A stretch of 15,634 nt of DNA. Origin: Candidatus Hodarchaeota archaeon. Its GTDB lineage: Archaea > Asgardarchaeota > Heimdallarchaeia > Hodarchaeales > Hodarchaeaceae. The notes beneath the pieces were generated by a model, which had not been told where the DNA came from, searched no databases, and worked only from the letters and a program-made list of their open reading frames with translations. The position numbers and the translations under genes were made by a program. Location of the stretch: the NCBI GenBank assembly GCA_016840035.1, contig JAEOTC010000251.1, positions 1 to 15,634 of the forward strand, in the 5' to 3' direction. Shown here in pieces: positions 1 through 15,634 of the stretch; positions within the stretch are counted from its first letter, which is position 1, and each line of letters begins with the position of its first letter.

Positions 1-2573
1 AACATTCTTGACAACTGTTGTATGTTCATTCCTAAAGATCTTTCCACAGCAAGTTCACGAGCACGTCCATGTAATTGATTATAACCGTAAAATAGAATGG
101 CCAAAATTATTACTGCAAGAGAGATGATAAAAAGAACATTGAAATGAAAAAAGAGAATCTGCACATTTACTGAATCCGTAACTTCATGAATAAGCTCTTC
201 AGCAAAAATAAGCGAGTAATTACCGTAAGTTTTCTTCATAGCAGTAAAATTAGCGGATTGTGAAAGATCGAGATAGTATCCCTCTTGTAAAATGGAAATT
301 GGAACCCCGACGGATGATAATGCTGTAAATGTTTCATTACTAATGACGAGTTTGGGTGTAGCGATCGAAGATGAAGGATGAGTCTGGATTAAGCGCGGCC
401 AATAGTTAAAAGAACCTAAGATACTCAACGAAATAGATCCATTATTTTCTGTAGTAATCGACAGAGAATCACCAATTTTCTGTTTAGAAATATCTTGAAA
501 TTCTTCATTTACCAATACTGATAAATTATTCGATAGTAAGTCAGAAATAACCTGAGATTTCACGAAATTATTTTCAAAATAACCTACATCCAAAAATGAC
601 GGAAACACAACAAATGTTTCTAAGGAAATAGGGGATGTTGGAGAAATTGGAAGACTTACAATAGCAAATCGAACATGAGATTGGACATTCGGATCATTGA
701 AGAAGGATGCTTCTAGACTATTATTCCAAAAGTGGTCATAAAAACAGTCAGCACCAACTGAATAATAAGCATTCCGAATACTATTCGACTGAACATTGTC
801 GGGTACCACAAACATTGCCAAAGAAATGGAAAAAATCAGCGAAAATAATAAAATTATCTTTGTTACTGCAAATTTCTGGCGAGTCATATTAGTAACAGAA
901 TATGATATTAAATTTCCAAACCGTTTCCAAAGCTTTTGAGCAATGAAGTTCAGGATTGGATGAATGAGGCGAGAAAGCATCATAATACCTCCTATTAAAA
1001 GGAAAAAAGGAAATGGAATGAATATAACCACCAAAAAGAGTAAAAAGAAGAATGAGAGCACACCTAATTCCATAAATACATTGGTGAAAGACGCATTAAA
1101 TATAAGGTTAAGAAAGAATATATTTCCAATAACACCCATTGCTAAAAGAAGAAAATTAACTTTGTTTTGTTTCCAAAATGGAGATGGAGTACTAGATGAT
1201 TGGGACTCACCAATATCGAGTTTGCTTAATCCAAACATACGACTTATAATAATCACTCCTGAAATTGCTCCACCCAACAATAATATAGCAGGAACAGAAT
1301 AGGAAAATGTGAAGAAAATATCTAAACTCAATAAAACGGTATTAATTGTAATTCCAAGTCCTGATCCTAGTATAAAAGCAAAAAAAAGTGAAAAAAACCC
1401 TTCGATGAATATTATTGCCATTAATTGAAATGTACTAACCCCACGTAACCGAATAAGTTGAATATGGGTTTTTCGCTGCTCAATAAACATATTTGTAGAA
1501 AAATTTGCAAAGAACATGGCAATTAACAAGCTAGGAATCATTAAAAGAAGACCAAAAATGGTTAATAGGAATATTTCATCATAGAGATCTTCAAACTCAA
1601 CTAAATCAAGTTTGTTAGTGGTAGTGTAGAAAATATTATCCAATGGAACATATCTTTGTGGCAAAATTTGGATAGGGGAATAACCGAGAGCAGCTGAAAA
1701 TGTTTGAACATCCTTTATGATTTTTTGGAGAGAGAAAAATGTTGCTTTTCCTTTTAGGGATATTGAAAATTGAGCAGTGACGTGTCCCTTAATCCCTGTT
1801 TCAAGAAATAATGAGCTGATATTACTAAAGAGTTCATGGTCTGTATGAAAGCCAGAATGGACTATCGGATTATTAATAAGAAAGGGATCAGAAATTACCC
1901 ATTCATGATAATCAGAAGATCTTGGATCAATAACTGGAGAGTAGATCCCTACTATAGTCACATTGAAATTGGCTTTAGGTATTTGATTGACTTCAATTGA
2001 AATAGTTACATTATTCCCAAGCTGGACAATCCCTTCTATGTCTTCTTCATGTTGAGATTTATGAGACGTACTATGTATGAATATCATTTCTCCAGGATTA
2101 AATGGAAGTCTACCCTGAAAATTAGGTAATGTTACGACCTCATCTAATTGGGACCGATTTAATGAGGCAATTCCAATATATCTACTTACATTTTTTTCAG
2201 TTAGTGGATTAAATGCAAATATTTTTTGATGATTAAGCTCACAAAAGTTGAGCGAAAAATATTGGTCATCTGAGATAATATCTGCTAGATCATGACTCTC
2301 TGCAGTCTCTAAGACAAGATTACGCAATATTTTAGCTTCATTCTCTAAAAGATCCTTAGAGAATGTTTTATCAAAGCGAATCCCCCAAAAACTAATATCA
2401 CCTTTTTGTGACACCTGTTGGTCAACATAATCCATCTTAAACGATAAATCACTTGTAAAAGTTGTGGTCAGAAGTGCAATTACAATGATCAATCCGATAG
2501 TCGTGACCAGAATATTGTTTCTATCTTCTCGTAGGTTTTCTTTAATAAAATCAAAAAAACTTAGTATACTCAT
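1..2573 (-). CDS. FtsX/MacB-like ABC transporter permease, 3' end outside the window
   Basis: Manual translation from ATG at 2573 (MSILSFFDFIKENLREDRNNILVTTIGLIIVIALL...) showed no stop in the stretches read and appears open to the window edge. It has an N-terminal TM helix, a large soluble loop, the FtsX-type motif EQRKTHIQLIRLRGVS followed by several TM helices, then a second repeat starting NAYYSVGAD. Confidence 0.85.
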   Translation of the reverse strand, partial: MSILSFFDFIKENLREDRNNILVTTIGLIIVIALLTTTFTSDLSFKMDYVDQQVSQKGDISFWGIRFDKTFSKDLLENEAKILRNLVLETAESHDLADIISDDQYFSLNFCELNHQKIFAFNPLTEKNVSRYIGIASLNRSQLDEVVTLPNFQGRLPFNPGEMIFIHSTSHKSQHEEDIEGIVQLGNNVTISIEVNQIPKANFNVTIVGIYSPVIDPRSSDYHEWVISDPFLINNPIVHSGFHTDHELFSNISSLFLETGIKGHVTAQFSISLKGKATFFSLQKIIKDVQTFSAALGYSPIQILPQRYVPLDNIFYTTTNKLDLVEFEDLYDEIFLLTIFGLLLMIPSLLIAMFFANFSTNMFIEQRKTHIQLIRLRGVSTFQLMAIIFIEGFFSLFFAFILGSGLGITINTVLLSLDIFFTFSYSVPAILLLGGAISGVIIISRMFGLSKLDIGESQSSSTPSPFWKQNKVNFLLLAMGVIGNIFFLNLIFNASFTNVFMELGVLSFFFLLFLVVIFIPFPFFLLIGGIMMLSRLIHPILNFIAQKLWKRFGNLISYSVTNMTRQKFAVTKIILLFSLIFSISLAMFVVPDNVQSNSIRNAYYSVGADCFYDHFWNNSLEASFFNDPNVQSHVRFAIVSLPISPTSPISLETFVVFPSFLDVGYFENNFVKSQVISDLLSNNLSVLVNEEFQDISKQKIGDSLSITTENNGSISLSILGSFNYWPRLIQTHPSSSIATPKLVISNETFTALSSVGVPISILQEGYYLDLSQSANFTAMKKTYGNYSLIFAEELIHEVTDSVNVQILFFHFNVLFIISLAVIILAILFYGYNQLHGRARELAVERSLGMNIQQLSRM

Positions 2574-2776
2574 AGCTGTTTCACGAATGGAAATAGTAGA
2601 TAAATTCAGAACTAATAGATACTGGTATCAACCTTAAACATAAATCCTTACAATGTATTATATGGATTCTTTCTTTATTCGAATATTTCAATCAATTCTT
2701 CTTTTATACTTAACTAAGAACTTTAAATTATTTGAAGGAAAATTCCTCCTTTGGATTAATGAATGAGTGGTTGAAA

Positions 2777-2959
2777 TCAAACCATAACGCTTTGTTTTCC
2801 AGCTTCATCATAGAGCTGGAAAAAATAATCAATCGTGGTGTGGATTAACTGTTGGTCTTCAGTAATAACACCTGCTTCATGTAGAACAGTCATAGAACGT
2901 TCTATCAAATTTGCTGACCCTAAGTACATTTTAATTTCATCAGATATAATCAATTTCTC
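2777..2959 (-). pseudogene. C-terminal fragment of a phospholipase D (HKD)-like nuclease/phosphodiesterase domain
   Basis: The frame reads EKLIISDEIKMYLGSANLIERSMTVLHEAGVITEDQQLIHTTIDYFFQLYDEA..., matching (H)xKxxxxD-x5/6-GSANL...E-x-G. A TAA stop (2960-2962) sits at the position of the catalytic His. Confidence 0.6.
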
Positions 2960-3232
2960 TTAATTTAGCTAAGACTCTATTTTATATAATTTTCTATAAA
3001 GTCGAAAAGCTTCATAGACAAGATTCAAGCTAGTTCTTGATTTTAGAGACAAGACTCACTTTCAGTTATCTTTCGTCACTGGCATTACCATAGATAGAAT
3101 GACTCCATAGGTTCCGTGAAGGTCAAGAAATGATCTATACTAAAAAGAACCAAGAAAAAACCACAAAAAAATGTAATTCAGTTATTAGCTTTTAAGGATT
3201 ATTTTTCTCTATTACTTGTCCTTAAGGATGTG

Positions 3233-3319
3233 TCCTGCAATACCCTGCAAACCAGTTTCTCATAAAACTTCTAGGGGAAAAACTGAAAGATTTAAAGCTT
3301 CATCCTGCAATACCCTGCA
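3233..3319 (+). repeat. Left 87-bp direct repeat (att-like), two TCCTGCAATACCCTGCA cores 70 bp apart
   Basis: Aligns without gaps to 13672-13758 with 8 mismatches. TGCA-ataccc-TGCA occurs at 3236-3249 and 3306-3319. Confidence 0.95.
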
Positions 3320-3523
3320 GATAAATAAGGTCTGATGAGAGGCGAACTCGATTGTTCGAATTTCACGCAGAATGAATGGTTAGGAAATCAACAAAAAACG
3401 TAATAGAACGATTTTTCAAACAAGATCTCTCTTGATAATAGTAGTGAAATTACCTATAATTTGTAGTGCTTTTGCTGTGAATGGTCTTCTTTGAAGGTAT
3501 GTGAATTTCATTTTGCATGTCAT

Positions 3524-3566
3524 TTGACACTCATTTTCGGGAAATGGGAGTCAAAGAGTATATAAG
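3524..3566 (+). promoter_or_regulatory. Imperfect inverted repeat plus archaeal TATA box for the 3587 ORF
   Basis: TTGACACTCATTTT-cgg-GAAATGGGAGTCAA (3524-3554, 11/14 paired) is followed by TATATAAG (3559-3566), which ends 20 nt before the ATG. This is consistent with a leaderless archaeal transcript. Confidence 0.55.
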
Positions 3567-3586
3567 ATAGTTAGCTGATGGATTAG

Positions 3587-3982
3587 ATGGTTACTACAAT
3601 GACCCAAGAACAAAACTTGATAAAGCAAAAATCTGAGAAATCAGAGTCAGTAGCACCAGCAATCCCCAACCCCCACAATGAGATCAAAGCAATCTTTGAT
3701 CCACCAACAGAATTACCAATCGTCTGCCTTGAGGCAAGTGAACGGTCATTCATATTAGACCGAAGATGGGCAGGTAAACGAACAGCTGAAATTGTCCAAA
3801 AGAAATTTGGTGGTTACGGTATCGTTACCAATGAACAGCTGAGCCAAGCAACCAAACAAGCGTGGGATGAACGAGTTGCTGTCTGCCAAGCATTGACTCA
3901 GGAGAATAAAACTCCTGTTGAGGCTGAACCAGAGTCAGGGAACCCTGAACCAACACAGAACACAGTGGAGAAAGCTATCTAG
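3587..3982 (+). CDS. Hypothetical protein, 131 aa
   Basis: Stand-alone ORF with a TATA box upstream and an oligo-T tract downstream. No family recognised. Confidence 0.75.
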   Translation: MVTTMTQEQNLIKQKSEKSESVAPAIPNPHNEIKAIFDPPTELPIVCLEASERSFILDRRWAGKRTAEIVQKKFGGYGIVTNEQLSQATKQAWDERVAVCQALTQENKTPVEAEPESGNPEPTQNTVEKAI

Positions 3983-3987
3983 CTTAG

Positions 3988-4009
3988 TTCTCTTCTCCCC
4001 TTTTTTTCC
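3988..4009 (+). terminator. Pyrimidine/oligo-T archaeal-type terminator
   Basis: TTCTCTTCTCCCCTTTTTTTCC directly after the stop codon, between convergent genes. Confidence 0.5.
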
Positions 4010-4047
4010 AGATGTTGTTTATTGTGCTTATTTATAGCCAAATTTAT

Positions 4048-4962
4048 TTAAAACAGAACCTGTTGGCTGATCCCATCGAGGACATTAAAACACATTCTGA
4101 TAAATTTATCCTTCTTTTCGTAATTAGTCACTATTGTACTCTTGAATGAGCTCATTAGTGTAGCATAGAATTTATCATTAACAACTCGTTTTTCAGTAGT
4201 CTTAGATCTGACTTTTTTTCGTTTCTGCTTTTTTTGAAGAGCTTTCATGAACTCTTGAGGAGAATAATATTCACCCTTTTTTTCAGGATAATGCTCAATA
4301 CCCTGTTCAGCATAAATCAACTTCAGAAATGTTCCCATCTTCTCTTTGGCGTCATCCTCATTATCCTCCGCGGAAATAAGATACTTTTGATTAATACTAC
4401 TTCCAAAAGACCTCATGGATGCAAGATCGCTTGATAAAAGCAAATAGGGAAAACTTTCAGGGTATTTTTTCAAACGAGTGAAGATGGAGTTCCAACGCAG
4501 AACAACCAAAACTTCTCTATTAAAGAACATCTTAAGGAACCATTCCCCTGTTTTTTGGCGATTTTTCTTGATTTGTTTAACAAGGAGTAATTTTTGTTCT
4601 TCATCGTGTTCGTCTCTACCCACTGGTTTCGACTTGTCCCCTCCTTCATAGAGATATTCAAACAAGAAGTCCACTACTGCCTTAAAATCAATAGTGCTTT
4701 TTCGTTCTCTAAGACTGAGATTATCTGGATCATTCTTGATCATTCCAGCCCCTCTATTATCCAAATACGACAATGCTTCAGAGATATTTCCCTCTGAACT
4801 TCCTTTGGGATTTTTTCGTATCATAAATTTTGAAATTTCGACATTTTTACACGGTTTTTTCCAACAACATCCGAGAATGCCCGCTACTACTTCTATTGAT
4901 GGTGTGTAACCTTTTCTTTTTTCTTCAAAGATTCTATCAATTTGGATTGTCATTTTTTTCAT
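4048..4962 (-). CDS. Hypothetical protein with a probable N-terminal winged-HTH, candidate repressor
   Basis: 304-aa ORF. The segment NVEISKF...SSEGNISEALSYLDNRGAGMIK resembles a wHTH recognition helix and wing. It is transcribed divergently from the replication operon. Confidence 0.6.
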   Translation of the reverse strand: MKKMTIQIDRIFEEKRKGYTPSIEVVAGILGCCWKKPCKNVEISKFMIRKNPKGSSEGNISEALSYLDNRGAGMIKNDPDNLSLRERKSTIDFKAVVDFLFEYLYEGGDKSKPVGRDEHDEEQKLLLVKQIKKNRQKTGEWFLKMFFNREVLVVLRWNSIFTRLKKYPESFPYLLLSSDLASMRSFGSSINQKYLISAEDNEDDAKEKMGTFLKLIYAEQGIEHYPEKKGEYYSPQEFMKALQKKQKRKKVRSKTTEKRVVNDKFYATLMSSFKSTIVTNYEKKDKFIRMCFNVLDGISQQVLF

Positions 4963-4997
4963 CTATATTGTTTTTTAAAACAATGATTTTTAAACCC

Positions 4998-5050
4998 TTC
5001 GGAAATTTGTTTATTCTCCGAATGCTTCGGAAATATACAGATCACCCGAA
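4998..5050. promoter_or_regulatory. Two tandem palindromic operators TTCGGA-N13-(T/C)CCGAA
   Basis: Sites at 4998-5022 and 5026-5050 with a 28-bp period, next to a TTTTTAAA TATA-like box (4987-4994) in the divergent intergenic region. Confidence 0.65.
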
Positions 5051-5110
5051 ACAATCAATGGAATCGTTATCCAAGAAGGTTTTTCACAATAACAAAGCAG
5101 AATAGAAATC

Positions 5111-5144
5111 TTTTAAAACATAGATATAACATGTTGTATTTGTG
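5111..5144 (+). promoter_or_regulatory. TATA-like box followed by a 26-bp imperfect palindrome
   Basis: TTTTAAAA (5111-5118), then CATAGATATAACATGTTGTATTTGTG (5119-5144, 10/13 pairs Watson-Crick). Confidence 0.5.
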
Positions 5145-5202
5145 AATCAAATTGACCCTACAACCAGAAAAAAAGAAGGCTGAAATCAATTATAACCTCA
5201 TA

Positions 5203-5337
5203 ATGGTTATATGTCAAAAATGCGGTTACAAATGGAATCCCCGCAGAAAAACAAGGCCAGTCAGGTGTCCCCATTGTCAGTGTCTTAAATGGGATAACTA
5301 TCAACCACCAAAAAAGCAGGGTGAAACAAGCCAATGA
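5203..5337 (+). CDS. Small zinc-ribbon protein (CxxC-x14-CxxC)
   Basis: MVICQKCGYKWNPRRKTRPVRCPHCQCLKWD is a motif typical of small zinc fingers of archaeal viruses and plasmids. ATG at 5203 is preferred over the TTG at 5152. Confidence 0.8.
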   Translation: MVICQKCGYKWNPRRKTRPVRCPHCQCLKWDNYQPPKKQGETSQ

Positions 5338-5474
5338 AAAATACTTCCTCTATCAATTCCCAAATTATCAATCAGTTCATCCGCACCCAAAAAACGAGTA
5401 ACGAGTACTTACGAAAAGAGCTTAATGCTTTGAAAGTGCGTGTAGAAGACCTAGAAAACTCTAAGCAGCATTAG
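5334..5474 (+). CDS. Small coiled-coil protein, 46 aa (below the ORF-track cutoff)
   Basis: MKNTSSINSQIINQFIRTQKTSNEYLRKELNALKVRVEDLENSKQH. It has an ATGA overlap with the zinc-ribbon stop, GGGTGA upstream and a heptad Leu/Val pattern. Confidence 0.6.
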   Translation: MKNTSSINSQIINQFIRTQKTSNEYLRKELNALKVRVEDLENSKQH

Positions 5475-5663
5475 AAACAAAAAAAGAGAGAATGGGCGAA
5501 TCATTCACCCCATGAATGTCCGCCTATATGAGAGTAGATCCAATGAAGAAAGACTACAAGCTAGCAGAGACTAGTCCCACTAATAAATCTTTTGATTCTA
5601 ATCCCGTCCCAAATATTGAGTTTTTCAAAAAGGGTTATCATTGGATAAAAGGAGGGATCTAAT

Positions 5664-6962
5664 ATGTCTAGCCCTGAAAAAAGAAAATTAGAGCTCCGAC
5701 CCGAAGACAAACAATTTCTGGCTTACCTGAAAAAACAAGGTCTTACCCCACAAGCCTCAGTAGTCTCCCACTGTCCCGATTGTGCTAATTATAACGAAGG
5801 GGGGTGTATCAAACACCACTGGTCTAGCATACCTCTAGAGAAAACGTCCTTTGTTTTTGATGAAAAATCCCCTGCCTACCATAAAAAACATCCAAGCCTT
5901 CACTGCCTTAACTGGCGAATTAAAACCCCCCAGAAGCCTTCTCGGGAAGAACAGATTAAGACGGAAGAGGAGGAGAAGAGAGAGGAACCTAATCTAAATG
6001 AGTATCATTGCCTGAAGAATTATTTTCCCCTTCTCAAAAATAAGGATGTTACAGAGAAGAAGAAACAATATGTTGCAGAGGATATTGTTTCTGCATTACA
6101 TCGTCAATACCCTGAAATAGACGAATTATCTATGTTAGAACAGATGGATAATTGGAACCAACAACTAAGGGATTCAGGCATATATGGGCTTTCACCTACG
6201 AGGAAGCACCGAGCGATAAAACGGGGGTTTGAGGAAAAACTCTCCTGCGAGCATTATAACGGTATTCTTCCTCTCCAAAAAGAATGTACTCTCTCTGATT
6301 GTCCTAAATATGATGGTACAATAGAACGGGAGAGAACTATAATTGAAAGGTTAGCAGATGAAATTACTCATATAAGACTTTTCAAGGGCGATAACACGGA
6401 GATGACCAAAGATGAATACACCATTTTTCTCCGAGATAAAAGTATTCTGTTATCACATAAGCAATTAATGAGACCAGCTCCTTTTATAGAAAAATATTTA
6501 CAGGTTTTTGGAGACTTACTTAAGATTAGTCCTAGTGAATGGTATATAATCTTCAATGAGATCATTAAACCAAAAATTACAGAGATCATAAAGGGAGAGA
6601 AAGTCGAAACAGAAGAATATTACCGAGAAATGTTTGTAGATTCTCTACATGAACGAGGAGTCGTTTATAGTTGGAATGAGGTTAATCGCAACTCTCCTGT
6701 TTATAATACCAAAGATTCAACCCTCTGGGTTCAAACTACAATTGTTGGGGAGCTAAAAGAGCAAATAGGACTAACTTGTAGCCTTAGAAAACTACGGTCG
6801 ATTCTAAACCCAGTTATAGCTCGTGGCGTGGAACGGAAACGGATTGGAGGAGGGGGAGCTCGGAGTTATTTTTGGATATTCAAGGGTGAAAAACTAGGAA
6901 TAGAACCTCCAATAGACAAACTAGACTCTTACATGAACAATAGCAAGGAAAGAAGAAAATGA
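5664..6962 (+). CDS. Putative replication initiator/primase-associated protein (Cys-rich N-terminus, PriCT-like helical domain, C-terminal wHTH-like region)
   Basis: GGAGG RBS at 5651. It contains CPDC-x7-C and MDNWNQQL...GLSPTRKHRAIKRG...LSCEH-x9-C-x4-CP, resembling primase C-terminal domains. It lies directly before an origin-like region and a helicase. No AEP catalytic or Walker A motif was seen. Confidence 0.55.
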   Translation: MSSPEKRKLELRPEDKQFLAYLKKQGLTPQASVVSHCPDCANYNEGGCIKHHWSSIPLEKTSFVFDEKSPAYHKKHPSLHCLNWRIKTPQKPSREEQIKTEEEEKREEPNLNEYHCLKNYFPLLKNKDVTEKKKQYVAEDIVSALHRQYPEIDELSMLEQMDNWNQQLRDSGIYGLSPTRKHRAIKRGFEEKLSCEHYNGILPLQKECTLSDCPKYDGTIERERTIIERLADEITHIRLFKGDNTEMTKDEYTIFLRDKSILLSHKQLMRPAPFIEKYLQVFGDLLKISPSEWYIIFNEIIKPKITEIIKGEKVETEEYYREMFVDSLHERGVVYSWNEVNRNSPVYNTKDSTLWVQTTIVGELKEQIGLTCSLRKLRSILNPVIARGVERKRIGGGGARSYFWIFKGEKLGIEPPIDKLDSYMNNSKERRK

Positions 6963-6967
6963 TTTTC

Positions 6968-7165
6968 AAATGTCCTATATATAGGGGAAAAACAAATGAT
7001 AGCGAGGAGTAGTAGTAGTGGTACTACTAGTACTACTACTATTCTATCTATTAAAAATATCATGGGACATGGGACACTAGAACTACTATCTTTTATCTAT
7101 GATGTTTTTTTATTTCCTAATAAAAGGAAATTTAATTTTGAAGTGTCCGATGAAGTGTCCTATAT
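6968..7165. other. Putative replication origin: inverted GGACA/TGTCC iterons around an AT-rich core, plus palindromes
   Basis: ATGGGAC x2 (7062-7075), TGAAGTGTCC x2 (7139-7148, 7151-7160), TGTCCTATAT x2 (6971, 7156), the CCTATATATAGG palindrome (6974-6985) and an AGTAGTAGTA/TACTACTACT stem (7008-7040). Confidence 0.65.
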
Positions 7166-7186
7166 CTTCTGGGAGGAGAGGTCAAA

Positions 7187-9316
7187 ATGACCACAATCAA
7201 AGTTATTGGTTTTGCAGGAACAGGAAAGACTTCTTATCTAGTGAATCGTGTTGATAAATTATTTGACAAAGGAGTTCAACCGTATGAGATTGGGTTTTAT
7301 ACTTTTACAAGAGCTGCAGCTAAGGAAGCGATTGATAGAGCGCTCTCCAAGTCTCCCCGGTTTCAAAGGCAGGATTTTGCTCATTTCAGGACGATTCATT
7401 CCGAAGCTGCACGGTTACTGGAATTGCGGGAGGAGGAAGTGTTTGTAACTGATGAGCGATTGAGAGAGTTCTGTAAGAGCATTGGTTACCGTTACCAGAG
7501 CAAGGTTGATCCAGATAATCCCTATGACTGGATAACCAGTCGTTATGAGTCCCCTCAAGTATTTTGGGGGATAAGATCTTTTGGGGTTCATAACCGATAT
7601 ACAGCTAGCGAAGCTTGGGGGCATTATCCAAACCTTCGTTATGTTAAAAGCCCGCGTATTTCAGAATACAAAGCCTTTTTAGATAAATATTCAGAGTATA
7701 AAAACAATAATGGCTTGTTTGACTATGATGACCTCCTAATTAACGTTCTTCAAGAGAAGAAGCGTCCTAATATTAAATATTTGATTGTTGATGAATTTCA
7801 AGACTTAAGCCCCCTGTTATATCAAATCTTTCTTCAATGGGAGGAATCAATGGAGGAAGTTATTATTGCTGGTGACCCCTATCAGGCAATTTACACGTTC
7901 ATGGGGGCGGAACCACGTTTTTTGCAAGATCATCCCTCTGATAAACGAGTCGTTCTTCCCCAAAGTCATAGACTCCCATCGAACATTTTGACTTTCGCAC
8001 AAAAATTCATCAATGATCCTGACTTTCAGACAGTAACTCCTACTCAACAAAAGGGGAAAGTAAAGAAGGAGTTTGGTAAGTCATTCGATTTAGGGGGTCA
8101 ATTGAGACAAGAAAACGGTTCAGTTTTTTTATTAACTCGAACCAACTATCATCTTAGACAATTAATGGAGGAATTGATTGCTGAGGGGATCCCTTTTTCA
8201 ACATACCGAGGTTACTCTCTGTGGGATCGGAAAACCTGTGTCCTTCACAATGCGCTACTTAATTTTTCTACCAATAAGCCTCTCTCTCTTTATGAAACAA
8301 AAGTACTTCTTGCTCATTTCCCTGTGAAAGGCTTTCTCGTTCATGGGGCTAAAGCCAAAATAAACAAGGCTATCAAAGAGAAGGCTTCCTGTGATCTTTG
8401 TTTCCCTGACTCACAAGAGGTTGATCCTGAGAAATTAAAAAAGGTCTTTTTACAAAACCCCACTTTCTCTCATCTAATCCATTCTTTAAAACTTGGTAAA
8501 TGGCATAAAACCGCTCTAAAAGAAAAAATAGACCGTTCTCGAGAGCGCATTGATTATCAGCAATTACTGATCAAGGTAGGTACGATCCACTCTGTCAAGG
8601 GTCGTGAAGCTGATACAGTCTTCTTATTCACTGATATAACCAAGCGAATCCGTCTCTGGGCGGATGTTAAAGAAGAACAGCGGATTTGGTTCGTAGGAAT
8701 GACTCGTGTGCGTCAAAAACTAGTAATAGTAGAGAATCGCTTTAATAAAAAAACTCGTAATAATTATCATATTCCAGTTCCCCCTCAGAAACCCTCTGAT
8801 TCCTCTGAGACTAGCCCAGAAGAGGTTAAGCCTCTAAAATTACCAACGATAAGTGAAATCCCCATAACCCCCGATTTTTGGAAAGACCACATTCTTAAAG
8901 TGGTTGAGGATAGTGAGAAGGGTATCAACAGAGAGGATTTGAGGGAAAAAATAAGGAAGTCAATAGGATTAGGTATTGGTTATTATAATCGTCTAGATAA
9001 ACTGATTGATGAATTACTCCAAGAGGGAATCCTCTTTGAACCTCCAACTGGATATATTCAACTATCTCCCGAATCTGACTTAGATTCCGAAACATTTGAT
9101 TATGACTCGCTTCCCGTACCAGAAGGATTCTTACATTGGATTGGTCGTCGTTCTACAAGACTTGGTGAGCCTGTATCTGTTGTATCCGCCCACTTATGGC
9201 TAGCAAAAAAATATCAATTATCCGATAATGATGTGGAGACAGTAATCAATGAATGCCTACGACAAGGACTAATTTTTGAACCACGTTTGAATCAATTACT
9301 TCCTGTGGGAGAGTAA
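7187..9316 (+). CDS. UvrD/Rep-family SF1 DNA helicase with two C-terminal winged-helix domains
   Basis: Motifs GFAGTGKTS, FTRAAAKEA, FRTIHS, DYDDLL, VDEFQD, AGDPYQAIYTFMGA, QSHRLP, TIHSVKGREAD and EEQRIWFVGMTR. GGAGG RBS upstream. The tail repeats are LLQEGILFEP and CLRQGLIFEP. Confidence 0.95.
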   Translation: MTTIKVIGFAGTGKTSYLVNRVDKLFDKGVQPYEIGFYTFTRAAAKEAIDRALSKSPRFQRQDFAHFRTIHSEAARLLELREEEVFVTDERLREFCKSIGYRYQSKVDPDNPYDWITSRYESPQVFWGIRSFGVHNRYTASEAWGHYPNLRYVKSPRISEYKAFLDKYSEYKNNNGLFDYDDLLINVLQEKKRPNIKYLIVDEFQDLSPLLYQIFLQWEESMEEVIIAGDPYQAIYTFMGAEPRFLQDHPSDKRVVLPQSHRLPSNILTFAQKFINDPDFQTVTPTQQKGKVKKEFGKSFDLGGQLRQENGSVFLLTRTNYHLRQLMEELIAEGIPFSTYRGYSLWDRKTCVLHNALLNFSTNKPLSLYETKVLLAHFPVKGFLVHGAKAKINKAIKEKASCDLCFPDSQEVDPEKLKKVFLQNPTFSHLIHSLKLGKWHKTALKEKIDRSRERIDYQQLLIKVGTIHSVKGREADTVFLFTDITKRIRLWADVKEEQRIWFVGMTRVRQKLVIVENRFNKKTRNNYHIPVPPQKPSDSSETSPEEVKPLKLPTISEIPITPDFWKDHILKVVEDSEKGINREDLREKIRKSIGLGIGYYNRLDKLIDELLQEGILFEPPTGYIQLSPESDLDSETFDYDSLPVPEGFLHWIGRRSTRLGEPVSVVSAHLWLAKKYQLSDNDVETVINECLRQGLIFEPRLNQLLPVGE

Positions 9317-9337
9317 TGAAAGGAGGAGCTTAGAAAA

Positions 9338-9600
9338 ATGAGAATGATTAAGGAGACCCATGAATTAAAATCATTAATTAAAGAAAAGATAAGAACAAAA
9401 AAGAATCAGAAACAGAAGAAATAATAAACCCACAAGATGAAAGACGACTAGAGATAATAAATGAAAAAGAGAAAAAAATAAGGAAAATACAAACAGAATC
9501 ATGGAAAGTAGGAGACACACCAAAAGAACAAGAACCATTCAAGAAAAAGATAATAGCACTCAAAAACGAAATAGAAGAAATAGAAAAACTTCAACGATGA
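9338..9600 (+). pseudogene. Frameshifted (or -1 recoded) small Lys/Glu-rich protein
   Basis: AGGAGG RBS and ATG 9338 give a 28-aa ORF (stop at 9424). It overlaps a start-less open -1 frame 9382-9600 (ESETEEIINPQDERRLEII...LKNEIEEIEKLQR). Confidence 0.45.
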
Positions 9601-10093
9601 AGTATTAAACGAATTAAAGGGATTAGGTCATTCAGATTTTAAAAATGACTTGGAGAGTAATTACTTACGTAATTATCACACAACGGACAGGTAAGCACTG
9701 GTTCAGCTGATTGAAATCGTTTTGTGATATTTGAGGCCAATGTGGCTAAATTTAAATCTGTGCGGGATTCTAAATTCTTTGTTAAAACTGTGGTAGATTT
9801 TCTTCAATTTATCATTAGTAATCAGCACTTCAGGATGAAAGACCATTATCTAGTGAATAAATAAGGGATAAAATACAATTTCTTGATGCGTTTGATAAGA
9901 GATTTAAATGCTCATTAGTGAAATCCGTCATTAATCTCCGTTCGTGCTCAGATCAATCTTCCTTTCTTAAAGGAATAAAAAGAATATTTGATCTTTGACT
10001 CTGTCAAAAAACTTAATATCCACTAACTCGGAGAGAAAATTGAATATTATAAACTAAAGAAGAGAAATTTAGTATAAAAATGAAGTGAATTAG

Positions 10094-10678
10094 ATGCAAG
10101 AGCTTTATTCTGCATTAAATGAGGAAGAAAGAGTTATCCTATTCGCTTTAGGGGCAGCAAATAATTCCCCAATAAACACTAAAACTAAGCTTCAGAAGCT
10201 CATTTTCTTAATCTCAAATGTGTTTCCAGATTATAAAGAGCTAATTGACTTTGAACCACATCATTTTGGGCCATATAGTGAGGATATAGTCGTAATTGTT
10301 GAGGATTTAATTCAGCTCGGACTAGTGGAAAGTAAAGGGAACCAATTTTTTCTAACTGAGAGAGGTGTAGATATATTTTCACAAATAAGACCCGCAGAAA
10401 GATTAATGCGGGTAATTGAGGATTTTAAAGAATTTCTAGACGATTTAACCAATGATGAAATTTTAACTTTCGTCTATGTTACCTATCCAGAATATATCGA
10501 AGAGTCAAAAAGATGGGATCAGTTACAAGGAAAGAGGGTAAATATAGCAATATCGTTATTGAAAAAACAGAAGATTAGCTTTGATAAAGCCGTAGAAATC
10601 GCAGGAAAATCCGCGAAAGACTTTGGAGCCATTTTAATTCAGAGGAAAATTAAGTGGAGACGAGAACCAACACCGTAA
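10094..10678 (+). CDS. Antitoxin-like protein: Panacea/SocA(YwgA)-like wHTH fused to a UPF0175-like HTH
   Basis: The N-terminal signature is TKLQKLIFL...FEPHHFGPYSEDI. The C-terminal AISLLKKQKISFDKAVEIAGKSAKDFGAILIQRKI matches the UPF0175 pattern. Confidence 0.75.
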   Translation: MQELYSALNEEERVILFALGAANNSPINTKTKLQKLIFLISNVFPDYKELIDFEPHHFGPYSEDIVVIVEDLIQLGLVESKGNQFFLTERGVDIFSQIRPAERLMRVIEDFKEFLDDLTNDEILTFVYVTYPEYIEESKRWDQLQGKRVNIAISLLKKQKISFDKAVEIAGKSAKDFGAILIQRKIKWRREPTP

Positions 10679-11238
10679 AGATTCTTGATAACACAGTCAT
10701 TTCCGCAAGTTTGAGAGAAATAGTGTCTATTAATCTACTCGAACGCTGTTCTCAAAGGTATGACATCGTCACTTCTCAAGAGGTTTATGAAGAAGCGAAA
10801 AGGGGATTTACAGACAAAACTCTTGTTGTTTTAAAGAAAATAGTAATGGTTGAAAATTTAAAGCTTCAAAAAGATTATAGCAATTTAATTGGATATTTAG
10901 AGGCTAGATATCCTTATCTTCATACAGGAGAACTATCATCTTTTCTTTTAGCTTTATTAAAATATGAATTAAATCAGTTAGCGTATTTCTATATTACTGA
11001 TGATAATCGGGCAAAAAAGGTGATCAGAGAAATCCATGAAGATAGTCTCTTTATTGAGCAATTAGGAATGCAATTCAGTAAAATTAATATTACAGGAACT
11101 ATTGGTTTAATACAAAGACTTAAAGAACATTGGTTGATAAAAGAAAGTGAAATTGAATCGATTATTCTTGATCTAGAAAAGAGTACATTTTATATTAATA
11201 GCGAAATAATTGTGCTACTAAGAGGTGATAGACCTTGA
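10654..11238 (+). CDS. PIN-domain ribonuclease (DUF3368/VapC-like)
   Basis: ILDNTVI, VYEE, LHTGELSS, ITDDNRAKK and ITGTIGLI supply the acidic PIN tetrad. The gene overlaps the antitoxin-like gene. Confidence 0.85.
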   Translation: METRTNTVKILDNTVISASLREIVSINLLERCSQRYDIVTSQEVYEEAKRGFTDKTLVVLKKIVMVENLKLQKDYSNLIGYLEARYPYLHTGELSSFLLALLKYELNQLAYFYITDDNRAKKVIREIHEDSLFIEQLGMQFSKINITGTIGLIQRLKEHWLIKESEIESIILDLEKSTFYINSEIIVLLRGDRP

Positions 11239-12263
11239 AACTTGATGTAAAATTAGAGGGAATTGATGATGAGCTGTTATATAAGAGAGTTTCACTTAAA
11301 TTAGGAAAAAAGAAGGTCATAACACCCACAAGAACCAATCCATCGACCGTAGTTAATTCAATTAATGAAGTTTACAATAGCTTTAAGACAACAACTATAG
11401 ATAATTGCTTAAATGATAATAAACGCGAAGCTCGTAAGAATAATGAAGTCAAGCGTAAATTAACAAGTGGTTTAAATTTTTATATAATCAGCTATACAAG
11501 CCCTGAAATTCCTAATGACAAACAAATAGAATTTCTTGCAGATATCCAGTATGGACATAGTGATGTAGTAATTACACCAACTTGGTCTCAAATTGTCAGA
11601 GATTCTAAGGATAGTCAGAAACTATTAGCTGAATATCGTAAATTGACTAACACTTTCTTAGATGTTGTTGAAACTCTCAATAATAAATCTATTATTGGCA
11701 TGATTTCCGCTAAACTTCCTAGAATTATACTAAAACCAGTAATAGATAATTATGTTAAAAGAAATATTACTTCATTTGTATTAGATTTCGATGGAAGATC
11801 AATTGATTCAGGAATGAGTTGGATAAGAAATTTAATGAGAATAGTGAAACAAGACACCGGTTTCGAGGAATCTTTTCTATATTCACTTAATCCTAGTCGC
11901 GGTAGGTTCACTAAAACTGCGAAACAAATCCTTGCTAAGGATTTTATCAATACAGCATTTGGTATGGATGTCGTTGGTTTATACCATATACCTTTAAGAG
12001 TCCATTTACCAAAAATGGACATACCTCCTAGAATTTTCATAAAAGAAAGCTATGGGTATGAAAGGATTCCTTCTAAACAATTAACCCAGAGAGGGATTAC
12101 TAATACCAAAGAATATAATCGAAATGAGCAATACAATGAGAAATTAACACTACAAACAAAACTAAAAGAAGAATCAACTATCGTAGACTATATTCAATCA
12201 AAATCCCAAGTAGATGAAAAGATAATTACTAAGATTAAAAAAGTTAAATCTGAAACAACATAA
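11235..12263 (+). CDS. Divergent tRNA-guanine transglycosylase (TGT)-like TIM-barrel protein, probably non-canonical
   Basis: TTGA overlap with the PIN stop and a GAGGTGA RBS. TGT-like landmarks appear in order: RVSLKLGKKKVITP, IQYGHSDVV, FGMDVVG and a C-terminal YN...E...L...L...DY helix. The Zn-binding Cys cluster is absent. Confidence 0.5.
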   Translation: MKLDVKLEGIDDELLYKRVSLKLGKKKVITPTRTNPSTVVNSINEVYNSFKTTTIDNCLNDNKREARKNNEVKRKLTSGLNFYIISYTSPEIPNDKQIEFLADIQYGHSDVVITPTWSQIVRDSKDSQKLLAEYRKLTNTFLDVVETLNNKSIIGMISAKLPRIILKPVIDNYVKRNITSFVLDFDGRSIDSGMSWIRNLMRIVKQDTGFEESFLYSLNPSRGRFTKTAKQILAKDFINTAFGMDVVGLYHIPLRVHLPKMDIPPRIFIKESYGYERIPSKQLTQRGITNTKEYNRNEQYNEKLTLQTKLKEESTIVDYIQSKSQVDEKIITKIKKVKSETT

Positions 12264-12660
12264 TTCACTGCTGAACATTTAATAGAGAGACGTATGGTCT
12301 ATTAAAAATTTTCTACATAATTCATACTGTTATACGATTAGTGAATTTGTGTATTAATTTCTTTTATTTCACTGAATTTAGCAGTTGATTAATTTTTGTT
12401 TGTTGAGAAAGACTTGAAAATAGCTCAATTTAAGGGAGAAATAATACCTACGATAATAGATTAACGACCTTGAGTGTGCAACCCTTAGATTTTTCATATT
12501 GTCCTTTCTAGCAATACGGTTCTTTTTCCAATTTTTAATTCTCTATCTCTTTGATCTTGAACCTTACTATTTTATGCCTCTCATACTGATCTTTCCTTAC
12601 TATCCATTTCTTCAGGAGCTGATTCATTGGTTGATGATTTATTGAAGTAATCGCATGAAA

Positions 12661-12688
12661 ACGTTACATGAATCAAATTATGTAATGT
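12661..12688. other. dif-like 11-6-11 tyrosine recombinase site
   Basis: ACGTTACATGA-ATCAAA-TTATGTAATGT. The arms are 9/11 inverted, and the right arm begins TTATGT like XerD-type arms. Confidence 0.4.
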
Positions 12689-13132
12689 AATATTGCCCTG
12701 AGAAATATTATGTAACGGAAATAAGTCTCTCAACTCACTATTTCTCTGTTCTATTAATTTCCACTCTAAGAAAACTAAATTTAGCCAATCCTCTAATAGA
12801 GGAGTTTATTCAAGCAAAAAAATCAGAGAAACGACCTAGTAATTAGAAATAGCAAAATATTTCCCTTAATGAGCCTTTCCTCCCCTTCAATACACTCGTG
12901 AATGAATAGTCATGTTCTGAGACTCGTTATGAGTCTCCTCACGCATGTAAAATACTCACGGATTCTTGCGGGCTAGAATAGCCCATAAATTAATTTTACC
13001 GTTATTTCCGTTTAATTTTCAAAAATAATCTCATTGAGTGAATCATACATTCTCATTTTTTCTTAAAGCGAGGGGGGTAGTTGGGGGGGTTTTATTTTCT
13101 CAAAGAATCAAGATTTGGAGGTTGATAGACAG

Positions 13133-13288
13133 ATGACTAAGAGATCCCCTATGTTTACATCAGAAAAGAATTTAGCTGTTGTGGATGTGAAAATCAAGCC
13201 TCTCAGTCTAGACCTTAAAGCTAGTGATATGAGTTTAAAGGTTAGTAAGAGAGGTGTAATTTTGCTTCTCAACCTTCGAGAGAGTTAG
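13133..13288 (+). CDS. Possible small protein, 51 aa
   Basis: MTKRSPMFTSEKNLAVVDVKIKPLSLDLKASDMSLKVSKRGVILLLNLRES, preceded by GGAGGT at 13117-13122. No other support. Confidence 0.3.
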   Translation: MTKRSPMFTSEKNLAVVDVKIKPLSLDLKASDMSLKVSKRGVILLLNLRES

Positions 13289-13524
13289 GATGCTCGTGAA
13301 ACATCCAATTTTTCACTTATCATGAGCTAAAAAAGTAAACCTGTCTTTTACAGTGAACTTTTTACGTAGAAAGAGTTGATTAATCACGTTATTTTGGATT
13401 ATACTTAATGAGAGGATGCTCAATGCAAAACAAGGAAAATTAACATCCTTATGGAGAGGAATGCAACATAAACCCCCTTAAAATCAAATCCAATTAACTT
13501 CCTTCAGTTTATCTAATCTTGTTG

Positions 13525-13567
13525 TGCATGAGTGTGCACACTAAGAAATAGCTGTTTTAATAAAGCT
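13525..13567 (+). repeat. Partial copy of the 70-bp unit (core plus Y arm)
   Basis: TGCA-tgagtg-TGCA, then cACTAAGAAATAGCTGTTTTAATAAAGCT, which matches 13759-13786 with one indel and two mismatches. Confidence 0.85.
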
Positions 13568-13671
13568 TATTACTAGGATGTTTGTTACTCATAATGTTGC
13601 CATAAAAGTTACAATATATATCGACATACAATATTTTTACTGACCTGACCTCACTTTTTTGCTTTCTTTTA

Positions 13672-13758
13672 TCCTGCAATGCCCTGCAAACCAGCTTCTC
13701 ATTAAGCTTATAGGGGAAAACCCGAAAGATTTAAAGCTTCATCCTGCAGTACCCTGCA
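13672..13758 (+). repeat. Right 87-bp direct repeat (att-like)
   Basis: 79/87 identical to 3233-3319, with cores at 13675-13688 and 13745-13758. Confidence 0.95.
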
Positions 13759-13828
13759 TACTAAGAATAGCTGTTCTAATAAAGCTATTAATTAAAACCT
13801 TTCAAGTTTAAGTATGCATAAGTGTGCA
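13745..13828 (+). repeat. Second 70-bp unit (Y), sharing a core with the right repeat
   Basis: A third core, TGCA-taagtg-TGCA at 13815-13828, lies exactly 70 bp after the 13745 core. The arm shares AGCT..TTCT.AT.AAGCT and AAAACC...AAG.TTTAA blocks with the X arm. Confidence 0.75.
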
Positions 13829-13866
13829 TGGTGATTACAAAGGTTGAAACTTCAAAATAAGAGTTT

Positions 13867-13886
13867 AGAAAAAAAAGGGGAAAGAA
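13867..13886 (-). terminator. Oligo-T terminator of the recombinase operon
   Basis: The minus strand reads TTCTTTCCCCTTTTTTTTCT just after the stop, the same C4-T7/8 pattern as at 3997-4007. Confidence 0.5.
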
Positions 13887-13894
13887 TAAACTAT

Positions 13895-14857
13895 TTAGGC
13901 TCTCGCTCTCGCAAAATGGTTACGATAATCGTCGAAGGTTTCTTTTTCAGTGATTCCTAGATAGATCTGAGTAGTCCGAATAGAACCATGACCCATCAAT
14001 CTAGAAATAGTTAAAATGTTGACCCCTTCTCTATAAAGATTTGTAGCAAATGTTCTGCGGAGGTCATGCGAGGTAAACCATTGATTTTCCTTTATTTCTT
14101 CTGTATTTCCATAGATTAACTCGCTCATGTGATTAAAGTATCGCTGGAGGTTTCTGATGTCAAACTTACCCCTGCTAGAAAAGAACACTAATTTATGATT
14201 GGTTTGTTTGTATTCTATCCGAGTTTGAAACCATTTTTCCCATTCCTGAATATGATGGTCAAGAATAGGGATTCTTCGATCTTTTTTCCGCTTTGAACCA
14301 CGAATCTTTAGTAATTTATTTGTTAAATCAACATCCTGTAGCGTAAGATTGATATACTCGCCAGCCCTAAGACCGTAATTTATTCCAACCCAAAATAACA
14401 TCTTAAGGATAGGGTCGTGTAATTTTCTTAAACCTGATTTTATCTCGATGTGAGTTAATGCTCTAGTGGTGTATTCCTCATTTTTAGGTAAGTCAGGATA
14501 GTACTTTTGAATTTTTTTTAGTTTTCTATCTGAAATAATCAATTGCCCGTCAGGACTCGTTTTCTCTTCACTATGTAACCATTCAATCCAAGTCCTTATA
14601 GACCAGTAATTGACCTTAATGGTATTGGAGGAACATGGTTTAGGTCGTCTGTCCATCATTTCTTGCACAAATCTGGCGAGGTCTGTGGCTTGAATGTCGG
14701 GAAGCGTCTTTCCGTGCTTCTCCATCTTTTCTAAAAACTTTTGTACGTTGTACCCGTAATTTCTTAACGTTTTATGACTTTTTTGAGAAGTTACTAACGG
14801 GTCATTCATAAATGCTACAATTAGTGGATTCAATTCCTTTTTTTGTTTAGGACTCAT
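13895..14857 (-). CDS. Tyrosine recombinase/integrase (Xer-like)
   Basis: Complete catalytic set: GLRAGE (R), GSKRKKDR (K), SHDLRR (HxxR), LMGH (H) and TTQIY (Y). N-terminal SAM-like region KTLRNY...SSNTIKV. Confidence 0.96.
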   Translation of the reverse strand: MSPKQKKELNPLIVAFMNDPLVTSQKSHKTLRNYGYNVQKFLEKMEKHGKTLPDIQATDLARFVQEMMDRRPKPCSSNTIKVNYWSIRTWIEWLHSEEKTSPDGQLIISDRKLKKIQKYYPDLPKNEEYTTRALTHIEIKSGLRKLHDPILKMLFWVGINYGLRAGEYINLTLQDVDLTNKLLKIRGSKRKKDRRIPILDHHIQEWEKWFQTRIEYKQTNHKLVFFSSRGKFDIRNLQRYFNHMSELIYGNTEEIKENQWFTSHDLRRTFATNLYREGVNILTISRLMGHGSIRTTQIYLGITEKETFDDYRNHFARARA

Positions 14858-15416
14858 TTTCTTTACTATTCCATTTTAATCGTCTAGATCGTACTTTATA
14901 GGATAAAAACCCCTCCTGCATCAATTCTAGAAGAATTTCATCATAAACTTTATCATCTGTTATTTCTTCCTCCTTTAAGGGATATTCCTGAACTAGAAAA
15001 GCTTCAATTTTTTGGTAGGTATCCAATTCTGCTAATTTGTCGTAATTCAGCAGTTTATGTTTAATTTCTTCTAATAAATCTGCCTTTTCTCCATTTTCTT
15101 GTTGGTGGATCAATAACTGACTCATCTGTTGTAGTTTTTGAAGAGTTTCTTGTTGTTGTTGAAATAATCGATCTCCTAGTAGTTGAAAATCTTCTTTTGT
15201 AGCAGTATCGGTGATTATGGGTGCGTCTCCAATTTCCCAAAGCTCAGGACGTTTTAGGTACTTACGTACACCTTGTATAAGTAGCTCTGTTTTGTTTCCT
15301 CTGGTCAAAATCTTAGCAGCTTTCTCTAAGTCAGCTTTATCCTCTTTTAAGAGACGATAAGAGAATACTATGCCTTTTCCTTCCCCTTCTGATTCGTTTT
15401 CATCATTTTCCGTCAA
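14847..15416 (-). CDS. Ribbon-helix-helix DNA-binding protein with a coiled coil and a C-terminal wHTH-like region
   Basis: IVFSYRLLKEDKADLEKAAKILTRGNKTELLIQGVRKYL fits a CopG-like RHH. It has a Gln-rich coil and a tail reading ILLELMQEGFLSY. TTG start with an AGGAG RBS, and an 11-nt overlap with the recombinase start. Confidence 0.7.
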   Translation of the reverse strand: MTENDENESEGEGKGIVFSYRLLKEDKADLEKAAKILTRGNKTELLIQGVRKYLKRPELWEIGDAPIITDTATKEDFQLLGDRLFQQQQETLQKLQQMSQLLIHQQENGEKADLLEEIKHKLLNYDKLAELDTYQKIEAFLVQEYPLKEEEITDDKVYDEILLELMQEGFLSYKVRSRRLKWNSKENES

Positions 15417-15634
15417 TTCTTAACCGCTCCTTAGAATTTATTGGTCAAGCTTGACTGGACTTTTCACATTTATAAATGTATATTTTTTTGCTTTACATTA
15501 TGGGTATAACAAAAATTTTGCGAAATCAAAGTTTTGATAATTCCTTTTTTAACCATCGGAAATACAAAAAGAATCCACAAAGAAAGAAGGAGAAAAAAAG
15601 GAAAGGAGAGGCATTTTATCCTAGTTGGTAGAGT

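Follow-up and report, generated by a model that had tools for sequence, protein, structure and literature searches.

A diverged tRNA-guanine transglycosylase-fold protein in a candidate tripartite toxin-antitoxin-like cassette of a Hodarchaeota archaeon

The three genes and their products

The 15,634-nucleotide (nt) contig JAEOTC010000251.1 of the Candidatus Hodarchaeota archaeon assembly GCA_016840035.1, hereinafter the window, carries at positions 10094-12263 three overlapping forward-strand open reading frames (ORFs) that encode a two-module antitoxin or regulator (gene A), a putative toxin of the PIN nuclease type (gene B) and a diverged (beta/alpha)8 barrel of the tRNA-guanine transglycosylase (TGT) superfamily (gene C), and that could comprise a tripartite toxin-antitoxin (TA)-like cassette. 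Gene A (10094-10678, +) starts with ATG and encodes an acidic protein of 194 amino acids (aa; isoelectric point, pI, 5.25), gene B (10654-11238, +) starts with GTG and also encodes a protein of 194 aa, and gene C (11235-12263, +) starts with TTG and encodes a basic protein of 342 aa (pI 9.5). Genes A and B overlap by 25 nt, and genes B and C by 4 nt (TTGA); the N-termini that follow from the chosen starts of A, B and C line up with those of the homologs. The three genes form an AT-rich operon (GC content of 0.29-0.35 vs 0.38-0.41 in the upstream helicase gene) with non-coding flanks on both sides (9564-10093 and 12264-13894), in which no ORF exceeds 61 aa; the overlaps, the non-coding flanks and the AT-richness had been recognized in an earlier note on this DNA that was made from its letters alone. 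The segment immediately upstream of gene A (10040-10093, +) is a putative promoter and leader, with TATA-like A/T-rich stretches at 10044-10053 and 10068-10080 and a purine-rich GAAGTGA at 10083-10089.

The protein encoded by gene A consists of two modules. Residues 140-189 (10511-10660, +) match the UPF0175 domain (PF03683) in Pfam with an E-value of 8.6e-7 and 29.0 bits, above the cut-off of 27.9, and the same domain is found in 8 of 8 close relatives of A (best E-value 6.4e-11). In the AlphaFold2 (AF2) model of A, built from 43 sequences (predicted local distance difference test, pLDDT, 92.8), the PDB structure nearest to the winged-helix domain at residues 8-162 (10115-10579, +) is that of the DarT-binding C-terminal domain of DarG from the M. 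tuberculosis DarTG complex (7yk3_D; PDB), with a Foldseek E-value of 1.5e-4 and a template modelling (TM) score of 0.5; the runner-up has an E-value of 0.15. Comparison with VIA gives the same DarG domain a Z score of 11.3 over 146 aligned residues (root-mean-square deviation, rmsd, 3.8); generic winged helices reach at most 9.7, with about 90 residues aligned. In PADLOC, the N-terminal part of A matches the PDC-M19A model with an E-value of 4.4e-13 and the DarG model, in its C-terminal half, with one of 1.1e-4, and the winged helix HTH_45 is detected in 8 of 8 members of the A group.

The presence in A of a Panacea domain, which the earlier note had proposed alongside UPF0175, is borderline. 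PF13274 (Panacea) has no match in A or in 7 close relatives, even at an E-value of 1, and the best structural match is the DarG domain; on the other side, the profile of the N-terminal module of A reaches a 313-aa paralogue (E-value 1e-12) in which the same region scores 24.0 bits with PF13274, just under the cut-off of 25.7 (E-value 7.8e-5), and PF13274 is assigned to about 20% of the members among the Atlas neighbours. The NCBIfam model of DarG scores 14.9 bits with A vs a cut-off of 250, no macrodomain is found in A, and no DarT is found in the window. The protein is best described as a DarG-C-terminal-like (Panacea-like) winged-helix module joined to a UPF0175 module. Proteins of about 313-326 aa with an N-terminal A-type (Panacea-like) module are encoded in 23 of the 25 genomes of one genus, with no adjoining TGT-like gene (e.g., L105:937-1878, -, and L109:1501-2448, +).

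Gene B encodes a putative toxin with a PIN domain of the COG2405/DUF3368 type, in which the acidic residues D12, E47, E93 and D116 are intact and, together with G92, are conserved in 37 relatives. The match to DUF3368 (PF11848; E-value 1.7e-4) is at 21.9 bits under the cut-off of 27.3 and covers only residues 146-186; PDC-S70 models of PADLOC match B with E-values of 3.3e-6 and 1.5e-4, and a comparison of the B profile with the PDB sequences yielded nothing meaningful. Because UPF0175 has been reported only in the context of COG2405/DUF3368 PINs, the C-terminal domain of A and B appear to be an ordinary type II pair, which they resemble also in the gene order, with the antitoxin in front, and in the overlap of the genes (PMC5499597). 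The trio as a whole displays the features of type II TA systems, namely small overlapping genes, a DNA-binding antitoxin encoded first, and mobility with a patchy distribution.

For protein C, no match was obtained in Pfam, NCBIfam or PADLOC, including the DpdA models of the latter; PF01702, the TGT family, gave nothing at an E-value of 1, and a profile search against the PDB sequences was also empty. The homologs include 26 close ones and 531 representative clusters at E-values of 0.001 or better (140 at 1e-30 or better); ten distant relatives belong to no Pfam family, and the clusters of these ten are almost nameless. In the AF2 model (pLDDT 81), C folds into a (beta/alpha)8 barrel that has a beta-hairpin cap at the N-terminus and a helical C-terminal part, and this predicted structure clearly has the TGT fold. 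Foldseek ranks 1-36 are all TGTs, and VIA, used as an all-against-representatives structural search, gives Z scores of 19.6 for both bacterial TGT (285 aligned residues, rmsd 3.7) and ArcTGT (295 aligned residues, rmsd 4.0), followed by the non-catalytic QTRT2 (16.9), Cap10 (13.2) and DpdA (12.9), compared with at most 11.6 for unrelated barrels. A direct alignment of the C family with that of ArcTGT using hhalign is not significant (probability 0.3-1.4%).

Among 148 relatives of C, no alignment column contains Cys in more than 21% of the sequences, and therefore the zinc site of the TGTs (CxCxxC...H) has been lost; H251 is the sole conserved His. The strand G-M-D245-V-V-G248 is aligned with the TGT motif GxDxxD, a correspondence that follows from the sister family C' described below, and the position of the nucleophile Asp appears to be occupied by Gly (Gly248) in 97% of the relatives. 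Several other polar residues, E45, K151, N219, D236, D245, E302 and K323, are conserved in at least 95% of these sequences, with D184 at 94% and H251 at 88%. A TP motif that follows the hairpin is common to C and TGT. The dipeptide S109-D110 of C resembles the SDI motif of TGT, and the equivalent of D156 appears to be T114, the alignment over these strands being non-significant; D102 and D156 (Z. mobilis numbering) are the base-recognising Asp pair of TGT (10.1101/2025.04.06.647259). The assignments made in the earlier note to the UPF0175 part of A, to B as a DUF3368-type PIN, and to C as a TGT fold devoid of zinc ligands with Gly in place of the nucleophile all hold up. Protein C is thus a predicted TGT-superfamily barrel, a heavily remodelled relative of the TGTs with no zinc site and, as far as the alignments indicate, with Gly at the nucleophile position. 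A function of C as a working tRNA-guanine transglycosylase was rejected, given that the zinc site and the nucleophile are absent and that the host genome carries its own, normal ArcTGT elsewhere. The C protein of the window is missing 11 residues that are present in all aligned homologs, between H251 and the R266-F268 hairpin (window 11985-12030, residues about 251-266 of C), which is a low-confidence loop in the model.

Conservation of the cassette and its sister cassettes

In reference genomes, A, B and C are encoded in the same order in 9 of 9 loci, which are distributed among Altiarchaeales, Thermoplasmata, Methanosarcinales, Methanocellaceae and Methanosaeta. In metagenomes, 59 loci were obtained for a distant subgroup of C, with proteins of 385-415 aa that are about 25-30% identical. 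Overall, 48 loci include at least 1.3 kb of sequence upstream of C, and both the two-domain A and B are present at 47 of them, the single exception being a fragmented C. The three genes are collinear in 34 of these 47 loci; in the remaining 13, they are divergent, a short spacer separating A and B from a C that is encoded on the opposite strand and would be expressed from its own promoter. Because the linkage survives both deep divergence and a change of operon layout, it identifies the trio as a functional unit, in line with the neighbourhood conservation on which the earlier note had made its proposal depend. In none of about 55 informative loci do the A N-module and a TGT-like gene stand alone as a two-gene locus. 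Decay is occasionally observed: C is split in L046, L077 and L086, and B is short in L001, L037 and L042. The alternative that C is an unrelated neighbour, or that the ORFs are not genes at all, for which the only point is the lack of family matches for C, is effectively ruled out by the number of homologous clusters, the near-complete linkage, the confident fold and the pattern of changes between the window and a metagenome variant, the 12 listed differences comprising 7 synonymous and 5 conservative ones.

Searches with the profile of the A N-module uncovered, in other genomes, operons for a protein of 384-426 aa, denoted C'. In the C' family, the CxCxxC...H zinc motif is invariant, and the nucleophile position is occupied by Ser, Cys, Thr or Pro. 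With hhalign, C' is aligned with the C family over the full length (probability 97.1%, E-value 6.8e-11, 296 columns) and with ArcTGT over the zinc segment only (probability 94.9%, E-value 4.1e-8); in addition, C' shows a weak match to PF01702 (E-value 0.0042). At the level of sequence profiles, C is linked to TGT via this sister family. The genomes from which L003, L005 and L008 derive yielded no C'.

In 8 of 8 informative loci, from two phyla, C' adjoins a gene for an A-type N-module without UPF0175 (one of these loci, L114, is cut by the contig end). The third gene of these sister cassettes varies. In 4 loci (four genomes, two families), it encodes a GNAT acetyltransferase, as in L110:1501-3887, L112:385-2676 and L113:356-2649 from other genomes of the phylum. 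In L115:394-2739, a predicted membrane protein of 207 aa is encoded by an overlapping gene; here, the A-type protein is only 167 aa long and the 426-aa C'-like protein is intermediate between C and C' (hhalign probability of 91.7% to C and 99.3% to C'). In two loci from another phylum (L118:1471-3515 and L119:1486-3505), a small Cys-rich ORF of 61-78 aa that belongs to no known family is located upstream, and the A-type proteins carry an extra N-terminal zinc ribbon. Because the third gene varies across the cassettes, the constant pair consists of the TGT-like protein and the A N-module; the presumed effector is exchangeable together with the C-terminal part of A.

Proposed mechanism and alternative explanations

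The trio may represent a self-contained, horizontally mobile tripartite TA-like cassette, a candidate abortive-infection or element-stabilizing module in which C is the controlling or sensing subunit; this reading, for which the case falls only slightly short of even, is the one preferred here. The role of a controlling or sensing subunit is favoured for C because two-gene loci are absent, the effectors are exchangeable and the short A-type protein of L115 leaves no room for a second antitoxin domain. Under the proposed mechanism, the UPF0175 module would bind and silence the PIN nuclease B, as in the ordinary UPF0175/COG2405 pairs, and the helix-turn-helix (HTH) parts of A would repress the operon, whereas the N-terminal module of A would dock on the basic protein C. 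A conserved polar pocket or an RNA-binding face of C, inherited from a nucleobase- and tRNA-binding enzyme, might then read a nucleic-acid or nucleobase cue, and C would thereby set whether or not A keeps the PIN inhibited. The PIN itself would be a replaceable effector; in the sister cassettes, the A N-module and the TGT-like protein are accompanied by a GNAT, a small membrane protein or a small ORF. In toxin-antitoxin-chaperone (TAC) systems, a SecB-like chaperone controls an extended antitoxin, and the action of C on A could be analogous. The TAC systems, which are mentioned in PMC8832971, are similar to the trio in logic, with a constant third protein, an antitoxin extension that this protein recognizes, and exchangeable toxin and antitoxin families; they differ in that the third protein is a SecB-like chaperone rather than a TGT fold, and the control of A by C is, for its part, conjectural. 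The broader proposition that a TGT-derived pseudo-enzyme or re-tooled enzyme, combined with a DarG-C-terminal-like adaptor, is the sensor of a new group of mostly archaeal immune or addiction modules, in which a cue such as a nucleobase, a tRNA or a modified nucleic acid unleashes interchangeable effectors (PIN RNase, GNAT or membrane protein), is possible but doubtful.

In the prediction for the three-protein complex, where C was the partner scored, the score was 0.45, compared with 0.00 for the best of 3 controls, which included one with A replaced and B kept; the runs agree in at least 82% of the contacts, and the pLDDT of the partner is at least 88. Of 80 solved complexes, 58 attain the mark used for this score, as do 2 of 110 mismatched pairs; the range at or below 0.60 holds only 7 of those 80 solved complexes along with both of the mismatches that passed. 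The result lends weak support to a contact of C with A.

Three alternatives to the preferred reading merit consideration. The trio could be a composite double TA system in which C is a toxin, for example a TGT-derived enzyme with a remodelled site that removes or exchanges bases in tRNA or DNA, and is neutralized by the A N-module, while UPF0175 neutralizes the PIN, the two antitoxins being fused in one protein. The C-terminal domain of DarG holds a nucleic-acid-modifying toxin by direct binding, and Panacea-type domains bind toxins directly as well (PMC8832971; Deep et al. 2023, going by its title as cited in PMC11825919), so that the same role is conceivable for the N-module of A; the basic C and the acidic A conform to the usual charge pattern of toxins and antitoxins, the polar residues of C are strongly conserved, the predicted contact of C depends, with the weak support noted above, on A and not on B, and both B and C are occasionally decayed. 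A self-sufficient pair would be expected to occur often alone, however, and no such two-gene locus was found; moreover, the A-type protein of L115 could not accommodate a second antitoxin domain directed against the membrane protein, C has neither the canonical nucleophile nor the zinc site, and several residues at the pocket positions are not the same in C and C'. This scenario is therefore considered unlikely. PIN toxins of the VapC type and GNAT toxins of TA systems act on tRNA. A role of C as a targeting subunit, in which a non-catalytic tRNA binder comparable to QTRT2 would set the substrate of the PIN nuclease by presenting tRNA, would agree with these activities, would fit the GNAT variant, and is compatible with the basic charge and the TGT fold of C, to which QTRT2 is a close structural match. 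Such a role is nevertheless improbable: a membrane protein, found in one locus, cannot use a tRNA presenter, the complex score drops to 0.00 once A is replaced with B still present (a weak indication), and the ordinary UPF0175/PIN pairs function without a subunit of this kind (PMC5499597). More generally, the TGT-like gene and the A N-domain are retained when the PIN gives way to a GNAT or to a membrane protein, a pattern that fits a sensor or controller and argues against a PIN-specific tRNA guide.

The remaining alternative, an enzyme of the deazaguanine type, seems very improbable. In this case, C would draw on the archaeal preQ0 pool and either insert 7-deazaguanine into DNA, like DpdA, or conjugate or transfer a nucleobase on A or B, like Cap10, a defence-system protein which shows that the TGT fold can be refashioned to accommodate the N-terminus of a protein (10.1101/2025.04.06.647259). 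Both Cap10 and DpdA score above the unrelated barrels in the comparison with C, and DNA methylases are frequent neighbours of the trio. Against this, the catalytic Asp that is kept by Cap10 and TGT (10.1101/2025.04.06.647259) is absent in C, the DpdA models of PADLOC miss C, and no queC/D/E, folE-type or preQ0 synthesis genes are present among the 25 commonest neighbour Pfam families (129 ORFs) or in the window; restriction-modification genes are only occasional neighbours of the trio elsewhere, and there are none in the window itself.

Several points weigh against the preferred assignment of C as a controlling or sensing subunit of a mobile cassette. The score of the predicted complex is weak, and no interface was obtained. 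The assignment of Gly at the nucleophile position and of the pocket in C comes from the order of the motifs and the C'-bridged profile alignment rather than from a residue-level superposition, and the high conservation of the polar residues of C is also compatible with a catalytic toxin. A-type N-modules are found in 40 of 83 genomes vs 4 of 83 for C, many of them apart from TGT-like genes. The membrane-protein variant is a single locus, and the third gene of L118 and L119 has no family identity. Finally, the families of neighbouring genes reported below were counted without a background control.

Comparison with the known systems delineates what is specific to the trio. Apart from the features shared with the UPF0175/PIN pairs, A has an extra N-terminal module of about 135-160 aa, and the 342-aa TGT-fold gene is obligatorily linked; the third component in the three-component COG2405 systems is different as well, these systems using an HTH protein with a DUF955 protease (PMC5499597) and not a TGT-like protein. 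With the TGTs (bacterial TGT, ArcTGT and QTRT1/QTRT2; PF01702), C shares the barrel, the N-terminal hairpin cap, the helical C-terminal part, the TP motif and the profile link via C'; unlike the TGTs, C has no PF01702 match, zinc ligands, nucleophile Asp, PUA or other C-terminal tRNA-binding domains of ArcTGT, and is encoded in a mobile toxin cassette. The similarity to DarTG consists in the DarG C-terminal domain being the best structural match of A residues 8-162, with weak sequence similarity, but A contains no macrodomain, has a TGT-fold protein rather than a DarT ADP-ribosyltransferase as the partner, and carries the domain as a fusion with UPF0175. As in the PanAT systems (Panacea/DUF4065, PF13274), a winged-helix module on the antitoxin side recurs with many unrelated partners; in contrast to these systems, A and its 7 relatives are missed by PF13274, and TGT-like partners are not mentioned in PMC8832971. 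TGT-fold proteins have been recruited into defence as Cap10 of type IV CBASS (cyclic oligonucleotide-based antiphage signaling system) and as DpdA of the Dpd system (10.1101/2025.04.06.647259), but these two retain the catalytic Asp and act together with QueC-type partners and deazaguanine synthesis genes, neither of which applies to C.

The earlier note did not recognize the trio as a named system, and no description of it was found in the literature searched: no text combined TGT with a PIN domain and an antitoxin, or a TGT-like protein with defence and TA, and two surveys of archaeal dark matter are silent on the subject. New here are the C' bridge to TGT, the near-complete linkage of the trio and the exchangeable third gene in the C' cassettes. 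TGT folds outside tRNA modification have been seen only recently, in DNA modification by DpdA and in nucleobase-protein conjugation by Cap10. If the preferred reading is correct, a third recruitment of the TGT fold, into a TA-like cassette with exchangeable effectors and without the canonical catalytic residues, would widen this picture and provide a testable module for the study of defence and addiction in archaea. The C family is large and entirely unannotated, and the zinc-bearing C' bridge offers a basis for its annotation.

Mobile context and genomic distribution

The distribution of C is patchy, with 4 positive genomes out of the 83 in the class and none among the 21 other species in the genus. 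Transposases, DNA methylases (N6_Mtase, Eco57I, N6_N4_Mtase), AAA_21/AAA_15 ATPases, NOV_C, DUF499/DUF1156 and integrases are the most frequent families among the 129 ORFs that lie no more than 2.3 kb from the trio in other loci; no recurrent fourth gene was found among these ORFs. The systems named by PADLOC in these neighbourhoods are mad2, type I methyltransferase (MTase), HEC-01A and OLD/GajA/PtuA-type ATPases; OLD/AbiEii-type ATPases are also among the neighbours. The trio, for which the earlier note had suggested a check for defence-island enrichment, is found among restriction-modification, OLD-type ATPase and transposase genes, as uncorrected counts. In L002:9082-14363, L003:2591-4906 and L008:257-3709 and 6336-12864, the trio is wedged into restriction-modification-like systems, with a type III methylase and a ResIII helicase directly downstream, or with an SNF2/NOV_C helicase upstream and a DUF499 protein downstream.

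Close variants of the cassette occur in metagenomes. The trio (9865-12256) and the recombinase region (13978-15523) have counterparts with about 93-97% identity in contigs of a cold-seep metagenome that comes from a different study; these contigs contain almost nothing of positions 1-9400, an absence that contigs cannot prove. A 521-nt contig from a vent metatranscriptome matches positions 11654-12174, inside C, with about 97% identity; it comes from the same variant and could reflect DNA carry-over, so that transcription of C is not shown by this contig. A scan of viral contigs yielded no relative, and BFVD no match at an E-value of 0.001 or better.

In the window, the trio is located between the two copies of a 96-nt direct repeat (3233-3328 and 13672-13767) that are 88% identical and spaced by 10439 nt; the word TCCTGCAATACCCTGCA is present twice in each copy. 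A gene on the reverse strand at 13895-14857, 128 nt outside the right repeat, encodes a tyrosine recombinase (Phage_integrase, 4.6e-27; Phage_int_SAM_1, 2.8e-8). The 10.4-kb stretch between the repeats holds the trio, a UvrD-type helicase and genes of no known family, and may be an integrated element or two tandem elements at one attachment (att) site. Scans of the window revealed no tRNA or Rfam family, so that a tRNA-derived att origin of the repeat is not supported by these scans.

The helicase gene (7187-9316, +) encodes a UvrD-like superfamily 1 (SF1) protein of 709 aa with the C-terminal winged helix of archaeal MCM (PF21120, 1.2e-7) and is preceded by a gene (5664-6962, +) for a 432-aa protein that belongs to no known family. 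The possibility that these two genes are part of the trio system was set aside, the helicase being a generic UvrD/GajB-like SF1 protein and the 432-aa protein having no defence-family match worth naming. The helicase and the 432-aa protein may be the replication module of the element or, considering the GajB-like PADLOC matches, another defence pair.

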